Shown piece by piece: positions 3,301 through 6,300 of a stretch of DNA of 19,043 bases (its first letter is position 1; the number at the start of each line of letters is the position of its first letter). The position numbers were made by a program. Origin of the DNA: a virus (lineage: Duplodnaviria > Heunggongvirae > Uroviricota > Caudoviricetes); IMG/VR virus record IMGVR_UViG_2529292831_000013; one strand, 5' to 3'.

Positions 3301-6300
3301 GCAGCCGGGCAGTTTCATACATCCGTCCACGCCAGTTTTGTACCTGAGTCAGGGCCAGGAGTCATCAATCAGCACCGATTTACTTGAGACGATTATTGTC
3401 TCGGATGTACGTTCATTTGCTCAGGACCCCCGATTTTGTCTTAGCGTCATGGCCGAAATAGCCTGCCGAGCCCTTTCCCCCGCAGTGAACGATCCTGGAA
3501 CCGCCATTGATGTCATTGGCAGAGGGGTACGTATACTTTCCGCTTACGCGCAGAATAAATCTGATGAAATAGAAGTGAAATATCCTTCTGTACATGTTGC
3601 ACCACTTCAGAATAACGATCTACTTGAAGACTTTTTCTCACCTGTTGCGCGCGATGGTGCCAGTATGAGGGAAATTCAGATAAGGGTCCTTAAAGGACTG
3701 TCGATGCTGAGTAAGGGTTGGCCTGGAATTTTTGCTGAAGCCGCACAAACCCTAGCATTTGAAACATTAGAGCATGCTACTCGTGCTGACCATATAGATT
3801 CTGACAGATATCTAATAAAATCAATTTATTATAATTTATTTAGTGGCGAAGATTCTAATAAAAAACCATAGTTGCGGAGCAAGCGATACGGTTGTTGGCA
3901 AGTCAAGGGCAAAGCATTCGCGTGAGAGTGGGCGTCTGCTTTGTGCCAGAAGCGGACATTGCGGCGTTACGGCACGTTAGGTCAGAGATTTAAATGCACA
4001 TGGTCCGCTTGTGGCGGAAGGATACTTACAAGAGTTGGTGAGAGATAGTAAAATCAATATGAAAATTAAAATTCGGCAATAATTCCTGATATAGTCATCT
4101 TAATGAACATAAAAACTATCACAATAGGATAGTTTTTATGTCATACTTGTTAGTTAATCACTTAAGGAATGAAGTGAGGCTCGTTGTGCAGAGGTTAAGC
4201 TAAGGAGGATTTTTTCTCGATACTCAGGTGCAAAGGAAAAGAAAACATCAGGAAAAATTCTTATGATAGTTGATATCATAGTCTTAACCACCTTATCAAT
4301 CACCTTCGAAATATTATCTATTTTAACCAAGTCTATTTCGGGAAAAACATTTAAAGCTTTTATGTGAGCCATTTCTTTTACAGTAGCTGTATGTACGTGA
4401 CTGCATAACGAAGAGTATTCAGCTTTTAAAGTTTCATGTAGTAGAGGATTTTTTTTGAAGACAGGATGTTCCCCAGTTTGTTCAATTACCTTAAACAATG
4501 ATTTTTCTTCAAGTATTGAAGGATCTAGTAAGCAACCGATTGATTTTAAAGAATTTTCAATATAACTTCGCATCATTAGATTTGCTGGTTTGTATGCACC
4601 ATTTATAACCATAAACATAGCTGTACCAAGGTCAGATGAAGCTTCTTGCAATCGCTCCAATGAGTTGGCGTCTATTTTCTCCTTGGAGAAATGATACAAA
4701 CAGTAAACAAGGCACATAAAAGAATAATATCTCTTATGTATCATGCTTATTTTCCCTCTTGAGTTAATATTCTCGAAAACATTTTTTAATTTATATTCAG
4801 AGAAATAAGTAACTAACTCAGTGAAATCGCTGTTTACTTCTCTCGACATTGTTAGTCCTTATTGAATATATCTTTTATAACTTCATTCCAGTCATATATC
4901 TCATTTTGAGCGCTAGAAAGGTTCTTCCTCTCTTTTATTCTACTCAAAACTAGAGGGTTATTTGACATTGAATTGATAATATTATAAGCCTTACCTAAAT
5001 CGGATGAGTTTTTCTCGTGAACGTCACACACGATTATGCCGATCATTTCCTCTCTAGATCTTTTTTCAGGCCTGCTGATTTCGATACCTAACATGCGTGC
5101 AAAATCATCTATATCTTTATTTTTTTGGAAGAGATCTTTGTCTAATAAAATCCTCGGAAGATACCCAACAAGGAAACCTTTAATATCATTTTTTTTGGAC
5201 TTTGAATTTCTTTCGTTAACTTCTAAATTATCAGTATAACTATCTTGAAGTAATTCAATAAAGTTGATTCTTGATAATTTTTTTGAAATAAAGGAAAACT
5301 CCTCTAAAAAGTTTAACAGTTGCTTAATTTCTTTTGAGTTATTTTTTTTGTCAGTCATAAGTCACCTACTCTAGAGAGAAGTTCGTCAGTAATTTTAGAC
5401 AGCGAAAACTTCATATCCTCATCCGTTAAATTGTTAATAAATAAGCCTCTTGTTTGATTTCTTGCCAACTCAGTACGTTTGCTCAAATATGATTTAAAGA
5501 TCTTATTACGCCAACGTTTTTGATTATTGAAGTAACGAAGACTTTCCTCATATAAATTACTATTACCTTCAACCATATTAAAAACTATGCCCGCACATTC
5601 AATCTTAAGATCGAAATTTTCTCTCTTCTCATTTATAATGCTATCTAATAGATCGATACCAGTGATCGAAAGAGGATCGGGTTTGGCTGGAATGAGGTAA
5701 TAATCAGATGCAATTAATGCGCTGGACATCCAAACTGATGGGGTTGGTGGGGTATCAATTATGACATAATCATAGTCATTTTCATGGATTTTAAGAAAGC
5801 GTCTAAGCTTGTTTTCTATCCCTTCTCCTGGTTTCATTTCAATTTTATATAGCCCAAGGCTTCCGGGAACAATGTGAAAATTATCATTTAATTGAATTGG
5901 TGTTATATCGGCTAATTCTTTAGGTGTGTTAACTAAAGGACCAGTCATTGTAGATAGTCGAATTTTTGAACTATAAAAAATATCACATATGCTATCGCCT
6001 CCGCTTTTCATATGTGCAACATATTTGCTTGTATCCATTACACATTGCGTTGCGTTAAATTGTGGGTCGATATCTATTAATAATATTTTTTGCCCAAGTT
6101 TATCTGAAAGATGATTAGCAATATTGGTAGCCAATGTTGACTTACCAACGCCACCTTTCATATTGATTAAGCTAATAACTTTCAATCTTCTTGCTCCTGT
6201 TTTGATTAACGCTAAGCTTTTTCATCAGCATTGAAATTTAACATGTGTTTTACAAACTTATGTCTTATCACTACCTTATCATTTTTTACATACACCATAA

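Follow-up and report, generated by a model that had tools for sequence, protein, structure and literature searches.

The virus record IMGVR_UViG_2529292831_000013 (Caudoviricetes) comprises 19,043 nucleotides, referred to here as the window, and carries a three-gene operon encoding a ParA-type ATPase, a small all-helical protein (gene 2) and a divergent HEPN-fold protein (gene 3). We propose that the 2,785-bp unit in which this operon resides (positions 3934-6718 of the window) is a mobile three-gene conflict module that most likely serves anti-phage defence in an abortive-infection or toxin-antitoxin-like manner, a reading to which we assign a probability of roughly 0.55. A role in defence or addiction is suggested by the fold of the gene 3 product, by its conserved residues and by the genes that accompany the trio in other genomes. 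The unit is made up of the following elements:

3934..3957, plus strand: left boundary of the cassette, formed by a hairpin-like palindrome of 24 nt, GTCTGCTT-TGTGCCAG-AAGCGGAC, in which arms and spacer each measure 8 nt
4107..4141, minus strand: perfect 14-bp AT-rich hairpin (inverted repeat I10), probable operon terminator
4154..4849, minus strand: gene 3, divergent HEPN-fold protein of 231 aa, predicted effector (RNase)
4852..5358, minus strand: gene 2, all-helical protein of 168 aa, predicted adaptor or regulator
5355..6185, minus strand: ParA/Soj-type (type Ib-like) deviant Walker A ATPase of 276 aa with TTG start, predicted sensor or switch
6186..6694, minus strand: non-coding leader and promoter region of the cassette, lying within the 2,785-bp unit common to the prophage and island copies
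6695..6718, minus strand: right cassette boundary, a 24-nt hairpin GTCCGCTT-TGAGCGAG-AAGCGGAA in minus-strand reading, inverted with respect to the left one

The genes for ParA, gene 2 and gene 3 are three consecutive minus-strand open reading frames (ORFs; window 6185-4154). The ParA stop codon and the gene 2 ATG overlap in the sequence ATGA, 2 nt separate the TAA stop of gene 2 from the start of gene 3, and Shine-Dalgarno-like sequences are present at both gene junctions. This coupling is not a chance arrangement because the order, the gene sizes and the tight spacing repeat in every related locus examined. The TTG start of ParA has AGGAG 8 nt upstream and is kept in four diverged lineages including Enterobacter, Pectobacterium and a metagenomic copy; an internal ATG was rejected as a start since it would cut off the conserved beta-1 strand. 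With 32.7% GC, the operon stands out against the transporter genes on its left (48.7%) and the DUF968-RusA-Q genes on its right (52.2%). An earlier sequence-only reading of the window had already described three coupled ORFs, a ParA with a deviant Walker A box and an AT-rich block, all of which hold up here, and the minus strand can now be added.

The hairpin at 4107-4141 is located 13 nt 3' of the gene 3 stop codon and is the sole terminator-like site adjoining the operon; as a terminator candidate its stem is weak, with three GC pairs. Promoter-like hexamers occur in the leader region at chance frequency and not above it, and an Rfam scan gave no regulatory RNA match inside the cassette. The leader sequence (6186-6694) is not kept in the Enterobacter or Pectobacterium copies. 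An 88-aa ORF at 6426-6692, for which neither homologues nor family matches were found, was treated as non-coding and is probably not a gene.

The ParA protein exhibits the sequence hallmarks of the ParA/MinD (SIMIBI) deviant Walker A ATPases, i.e. the signature lysine (xKGGxGK[ST]) in the deviant Walker A box MKGGVGKST (residues 9-17), the Walker A' aspartate in DIDPQFN and a Walker B motif of the hydrophobic-Asp type in IIDTPPTPS. In a Pfam scan it matched AAA_31 (1.4e-37) and CbiA (1.4e-18). It is probably an active ATPase because the Walker A, A' (DxDPQFN) and B (IIDTPPTPS) motifs are kept in all of the nine diverged ParA homologues from trio loci that were compared. A PADLOC scan of ParA returned only one match of P-loop length (PDC-M28B, 3.8e-05, residues 4-40). 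The nearest solved structures are pSM19035 delta (2oze, 3.3e-21, residues 9-272) and then Thermus Soj, and further matches were obtained with PHROG 164 and with NCBIfam ParA_partition (1.4e-25). This closeness to partition ATPases is one of the points that speak for an atypical type Ib partition system, in which gene 2 would serve as an adaptor of a new type that binds the centromere and gene 3 as an accessory protein, with ParA supplying the motor for the segregation of plasmids or excised elements. The score of 90 bits with ParA_partition is, however, far under the NCBIfam cut-off of 180, and we consider such a role very unlikely for reasons that emerge from gene 2, gene 3 and the plasmid copies.

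Neither gene 2 nor gene 3 had a direct match in Pfam, NCBIfam or PADLOC (the latter with a threshold of E<=1), and the only families recovered for the two proteins were PHROGs of unknown function. A profile search of solved-structure sequences with gene 3 resulted in chance matches only. The fold search proposed for both proteins in the sequence-only reading was rewarding for gene 3. The best structural matches of its AlphaFold2 model (predicted local distance difference test, pLDDT, 84) are HEPN domains, with 2hsb (AF0298) at the top, followed by Sacsin, TT1696, 4nqf and the HepN toxin 5yep, the others being generic helical bundles. An exhaustive hidden Markov model search delineated a family that comprises 390 clusters when grouped at 50% identity. 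Of these clusters, 268 score at E<=1e-10, and the best-scoring 150 have lengths of about 230-250 aa, truncated fragments aside. Pfam HEPN is matched by five and DUF5677, weakly, by 20 out of 103 family members, and the members P0156 and P0162 reach 23.0 bits with Pfam HEPN over residues ~71-170 (gathering cut-off 22). As judged from the predicted model, gene 3 is a divergent HEPN-fold protein.

Residues G84, R94, E98, Y145 and H153 are invariant among the 103 family members, while R3, D8, Y19, H38, E69, S72, Y86, K87, L148, C149 and P170 are near-invariant. The invariant residues coincide with HEPN active-site positions described by Anantharaman et al. (2013; PMC3710099), from which the motif definitions and the active-site placement used here were taken. 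E98 (103/103) forms the Ex3[KR] motif of HEPN helix 2 together with position 102, occupied by lysine in 75 and by arginine in 28 members. H153 ends the helix spanning residues 135-153 (helix 3) and thus resides at the place expected for the histidine of the Rx4-6H motif. R94 precedes E98 by one helical turn and, judging from the alignment, may take the place of the arginine of Rx4-6H that this family lacks. An arginine substitution of this kind has been proposed for paREP1/8, and non-canonical HEPN active sites are known not only there but also in AbiV and AF0298 (PMC3710099). RNase activity is predicted for gene 3 on these grounds, and residues of such an enzyme-like, invariant character in a HEPN fold speak against an accessory function in plasmid partition.

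In comparison with other HEPN proteins, i.e. HEPN-MNT (type VII), RnlA, AbiV, paREP1/8 and the AF0298 type, from which the top structural match stems, gene 3 is distinguished by a helical N-terminal extension of ~60 residues and a helical C-terminal extension. Its partners are a ParA ATPase and gene 2, whereas HEPN-MNT and other HEPN toxins are accompanied by a nucleotidyltransferase or small antitoxin. At the sequence level, gene 3 is linked neither to AbiV nor to the HEPN proteins found with AbiTii; a relationship with the AbiTii-linked HEPN protein or with the DUF4145 domain of HsdR was also considered and dropped as hhalign with the gene 3 family gave no signal.

Gene 2 is predicted to be all-helical (pLDDT 74.5). 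Neither the model nor profile comparisons revealed a convincing structural or sequence relative, nor a helix-turn-helix (HTH), ribbon-helix-helix (RHH) or ParB fold, which is a further point against partition. Sequence conservation is seen in a Lys-rich N-terminal helix, in the motifs G.LP..L.D..F..N.D and KRSRxExIG, and in a C-terminal W-N..I. The Lys-rich N-terminus is like that of ParA partner proteins and can be counted in favour of a centromere-binding adaptor.

The three genes are found together far beyond the window. In every locus examined, a ParA of ~275-285 aa is followed by a small protein of ~131-180 aa and a gene 3 homologue of ~218-246 aa. The order is kept even where gene 3 identity falls to 25%, and it extends over at least six phyla, loci of Bacteroidota and Firmicutes included. 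The trio is present in another lambdoid prophage that is unrelated to the first, where gene P and RusA/Q flank it (L002), in islands of Enterobacter and Pectobacterium (L006, L016-18), in ColE2-type mobilisable plasmids of ~5.8 kb (L007, L019-22) and in metagenomic contigs with 25-34% gene 3 identity (L005, L023, L026, L028). It also occurs in Hallella (Bacteroidota), where it is part of a polysaccharide locus, in Denitromonas and Solibacillus, in metagenome-assembled genomes of Melainabacteria, Lachnospiraceae and Cloacimonadota (L031-36), and in two viral contigs (L037, L038). The trio is an ancient, co-inherited unit. The recurrence in different contexts that the sequence-only reading had suggested looking for is therefore real, and its notion of a co-functioning module is borne out as far as co-inheritance is concerned.

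At many of these loci, recognised defence or conflict genes adjoin the trio. The neighbours are:

L005: HI1420-type antitoxin
L008, a CP4-like island of Escherichia coli: type I restriction-modification (R-M) genes with embedded DarTG, 1.3 kb from ParA
L016/L017: Mrr and CcdAB
L023: DUF4391-SNF2-N6 methylase
L031: AbiTii
L033: Lamassu LmuB (5.9e-29)
L034: type I HsdR
L036: integrase and serine recombinase

That R-M, Abi and Lamassu genes adjoin the trio repeatedly would be more usual for a defence system and speaks against the main rival explanation, according to which the module serves addiction only. In such a three-part toxin-antitoxin-like system, gene 3 would act as the toxin and gene 2 and/or ParA as the antitoxin, and carrier elements would be stabilised. 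The module always resides on mobile elements (prophage, islands, small plasmids), and a small gene upstream of a tightly coupled toxin gene is reminiscent of type II toxin-antitoxin pairs, both of which fit addiction. The small plasmids and the Pectobacterium island, however, already have CcdAB or RelE/ParE alongside. We rate addiction alone as unlikely; it overlaps with defence as the best explanation, given that many toxin-antitoxin systems also defend against phage.

The logic of an ATPase-controlled toxin is not new. Anantharaman et al. (2013; PMC3710099) described a two-gene pair of ParA/Soj and a HEPN protein of the MAE_18760 family and predicted it to be toxin-antitoxin-like, which lends support to addiction. 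The arrangement reported here resembles this pair in that, on mobile DNA, the gene for a small SIMIBI-class ATPase directly precedes that for a stand-alone HEPN protein, which is predicted to be an ATPase-controlled RNase toxin. It differs in that a third, conserved gene is always present and is placed between those for the ATPase and the HEPN protein. Furthermore, MAE_18760, compared here by its description only, is listed as keeping Rx4-6H, whereas the gene 3 family is devoid of the motif arginine. The statement in the sequence-only reading that no system of such composition has been described therefore stands for the three-gene form, but the ParA/Soj-HEPN theme was already predicted in 2013 and the three-gene form extends that pair. 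No description of the trio was found in the literature, including the text of DefensePredictor with part of its supplements and a 2026 domain-centric screen, and our literature search did not reveal a validated defence system with an active ParA/MinD-class ATPase as its core nucleoside triphosphatase.

Megablast identified the window as E. coli DNA. In strain 120899, the entire window is situated inside a lambdoid, Qin/Rac-like prophage, which is organised up to the trio in the order exo, dicB, repressor/cro, replication genes, insertion sequence (IS) elements, BCCT transporter plus DUF2254, and trio. To the right of the trio follow hokD/sok, DUF968, RusA, Q, a gene for a 427-aa unknown protein, a DNA methylase gene, two tRNAs, and lysis and terminase genes. 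The pair of BCCT transporter and DUF2254 genes is prophage cargo itself. The sequence-only reading had taken this pair for chromosomal and had placed the operon between it and a prophage remnant. This proved wrong, as the prophage itself carries the operon as cargo and CP4-like islands account for most of the copies in E. coli. The horizontal acquisition that it had proposed is supported by the presence of the same cassette in the lambdoid prophage and in CP4-like islands. The region is contained in 133 of 5,426 complete E. coli genomes, with the prophage junction in eight and the CP4-like island junction, where a YeeP-type GTPase and Ag43 are encoded alongside the cassette, in 124; 132 of the 133 copies could be placed in integrated elements. 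In both groups of genomes the cassette is the same at >=99.5% identity, and the prophage and island copies of the 2,785-bp unit (window 3931/3934-6718) that were aligned are 99.6-99.8% identical. The module is horizontally mobile.

The two boundary hairpins (3934-3957 and 6695-6718) form the inverted-repeat pair I1. Identity with the CP4-island copies begins exactly at the hairpin at 3934-3957, and matches to genomes without the trio end at the one at 6695-6718. In another strain (L029), genes for LysR, a gamma-glutamylcyclotransferase and a major facilitator superfamily transporter are located between the same hairpin pair at the same prophage position, and a third hairpin copy precedes the BCCT/DUF2254 pair. 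The trio is one of several swappable cargo cassettes because other cargo occupies the same hairpin pair at the same prophage site. The 24-nt palindrome that marks the boundaries of cargo cassettes consists of GTCCGCTT, an 8-nt spacer and AAGCGGAC. Further copies of it are present at these positions:

L001: 8403-8426
L029: 339-362, 4010-4033 and 7076-7099
L008: 7005-7028 and 9764-9787

The 8-8-8 layout of the palindrome resembles a recombinase core site, and the hairpins may function in recombination, as recombinase core sites or hot spots, or else as terminators. Hairpin-bounded cassettes of this type bear on the question of how prophages and integrative islands exchange cargo modules. Directly to the right of the cassette lies a toxin-antitoxin system of type I, hok/sok (window 7030-7354; Rfam sok at 7030-7204 with 110 bits, hokD annotated). 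The slot ahead of hokD holds relBE in Qin of E. coli K-12, which suggests that this slot regularly hosts conflict modules.

Plasmids deserve separate consideration with respect to partition. When three family members that are 25-100% identical to gene 3 were used for tblastn, only one true plasmid was found among the 72,556 entries of PLSDB. One of two 'plasmid' matches with gene 3, NZ_OL790696.1, is a chromosome-sized E. coli record of 4.8 Mb. The trio-bearing circular plasmids from gut metagenomes have a size of ~5.86 kb and gave no match in PLSDB searches. On two plasmids of ~5.8 kb the start of the operon overlaps the end of rep, the gene immediately before it, and in one lambdoid prophage the trio comes after replication gene P; these positions favour partition. 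They are outweighed by several observations. The Rep family of the trio plasmids occurs in 2,209 plasmids without the trio, many of them of 3.2-4.9 kb, and the trio is also absent from plasmids with a Rep that is 82-87% identical. The slot between rep and mobC on the CcdAB-Rep-Mob backbone (L019-L022, L039-L041) is a variable cargo site. It is empty in pDW18-1, whereas CP096192 has a phosphoethanolamine transferase gene at this place, CP059485 has IS5 together with hypothetical genes, and the ~5.86-kb gut plasmids have the trio. On this backbone the trio is optional cargo, and most copies reside in chromosomally integrated elements.

Repeats that might serve as a centromere were sought in the window at 3900-6800 and on plasmids L021 and L007. 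No tandem or iterated repeats were detected, and the window gave only short two-copy matches. A 14-nt two-copy repeat (6200-6213 and 6413-6426) was considered as centromere or operator and rejected, as it is not kept in relatives, and the DNA upstream of the operon is not conserved between close relatives. A centromere was thus not detected, though a single cryptic site is possible. Characteristics of a ParABS system are missing: there is no gene for a centromere-binding protein (HTH ParB or RHH of the ParG/omega type) beside ParA, no iterated or palindromic repeat centromere adjoins the operon, and the trio was not found to reside on low-copy replicons that need such a system. The similar size of ParA and the common KGGxGK[ST] signature relate the trio to the type Ib systems of pSM19035 (delta/omega) and TP228 (ParF/ParG), while it differs from them in the lack of an RHH/HTH partner and of a repeat array, in its near-absence from plasmids and in its enzyme-like HEPN protein as the third gene product. 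A partition role is unlikely because centromere repeats and a ParB-like fold are lacking, because only one of 72,556 plasmids contains the trio and because it occupies an optional cargo slot there. The sequence-only reading, which had noted a deviation from the textbook partition layout, was right in this regard: we found neither ParB homology combined with a centromere nor any sign that the trio is a fragment of an annotated partition or conjugative locus.

The plasmid p11184 from Plesiomonas (L007, AJ249644) is informative for addiction. Its ParA gene (3664-4482) is split into two frames (182 aa and a remainder of 76 aa), whereas genes 2 and 3 are uninterrupted and have retained their invariant residues. 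The split gene is a real pseudogene or else reflects an error, the sequence being an old one. Unless caused by a sequencing error, the frameshift speaks against ParA as an essential antitoxin of gene 3. In comparison with the gut plasmids, identity amounts to 78% for Rep, 58% for ParA, 38% for gene 3 and 37% for gene 2, indicating either fast divergence or cassette replacement, both of which are typical of conflict genes.

The vicinity of replication genes in the plasmids and in one prophage is also compatible with a control of life cycle, in which ParA and its partners would arrest or re-time growth or division of the host for the benefit of the element without conferring immunity. The precedent is ParA-Shi from ICEclc (Takano et al., 2019; PMC6812849), where ParA localises to the nucleoid, the 85-aa Shi is membrane-enriched and growth arrest depends on an intact Walker A box. 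Here as there, a mobile-element ParA gene is overlapped by that for a small partner. In ICEclc, however, the next gene encodes ParB, a HEPN protein is absent, and the function of ParA-Shi is tied to transfer competence of the integrative and conjugative element. Beyond that, the carriers of the trio (ColE2-like plasmids, lambdoid prophages, integrase islands and the Hallella polysaccharide locus) do not have a life-cycle step in common, and the trio behaves as swappable cargo. Control of the life cycle is in our view very unlikely.

Turning back to anti-phage defence as the preferred explanation, a working model can be outlined. Precedents are the predicted ParA/Soj-HEPN pair and ParA-Shi of ICEclc, in which a ParA from a mobile element brings about growth arrest. 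The effector role would fall to gene 3 as a non-canonical HEPN ribonuclease, with an active site built from H153 at the end of helix 3, E98 and K102 from the Ex3[KR] motif of helix 2, and R94 in place of the missing Rx4-6H arginine. ParA may function as an ATP-dependent dimerisation switch and probably binds to the nucleoid. Gene 2 might be the adaptor that couples the nucleotide- or DNA-bound state of ParA to the effector, possibly contacting ParA via its basic N-terminal helix as do ParB, MinE or ParG-type partners. In the uninfected cell, the complex would keep the HEPN protein inactive. By shifting the ParA cycle, a phage-induced change (conceivably foreign replicating DNA, breakdown of the nucleoid or a phage protein) would free or activate a HEPN dimer, such that RNA is cleaved and translation stops. 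More tentatively, and with considerable doubt, we envisage a widespread class of unrecognised immune systems in which a nucleoid-binding ParA would act as infection sensor by reading the condition of cellular or invading DNA and would be combined with an adaptor of novel fold and a HEPN nuclease, the catalytic arginine of which has moved to a different helix.

A number of points weigh against defence and have to be set against the evidence presented so far. The best-known function of ParA-type ATPases is that of motors which position DNA and cell structures. None of the system models in PADLOC-DB v2.0.0 matches gene 2 or gene 3, a paper naming these proteins was not found in the literature, and tblastn with gene 3 against 50,697 sequenced phage genomes did not give a match. 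The neighbourhoods represent a sample of about 15 loci and not a family-wide statistic. In gene 3, an arginine is not present at the respective position of Rx4-6H, as the residues 4-7 before H153 are L148, C149 or variable, and because of this absence of the canonical arginine the protein may bind instead of cleave. On the two small plasmids, the operon start overlaps the rep stop codon, a layout that would also suit a maintenance function. Finally, the evidence collected here does not separate defence from plain addiction by post-segregational killing.

If the trio does defend against phage, it would follow a new sensor logic, in which the status of nucleoid or DNA is monitored through the ParA cycle, and it would bring in both an adaptor of new fold and a HEPN variant whose active site is rearranged. 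Gram-negative and Gram-positive bacteria as well as candidate phyla harbour the family, which is thus not an E. coli curiosity. With 2.8 kb, the unit is self-contained, native to E. coli and experimentally tractable.

Two further observations concern the prophage to the right of the trio. The 427-aa ORF (window 9781-11064, minus strand), a further cargo gene, lies in a second AT-rich patch (~39% GC) and gave no match in Pfam or PADLOC. Oriented opposite to the neighbouring phage genes, it sits between the gene for antiterminator Q and that for a type II-like DNA methyltransferase (11665-12711), a classic moron position. The genes for tRNA-Thr(TGT) (12880-12955) and tRNA-Gly(TCC) (12959-13033) are found after the methyltransferase gene and before the lysis genes.

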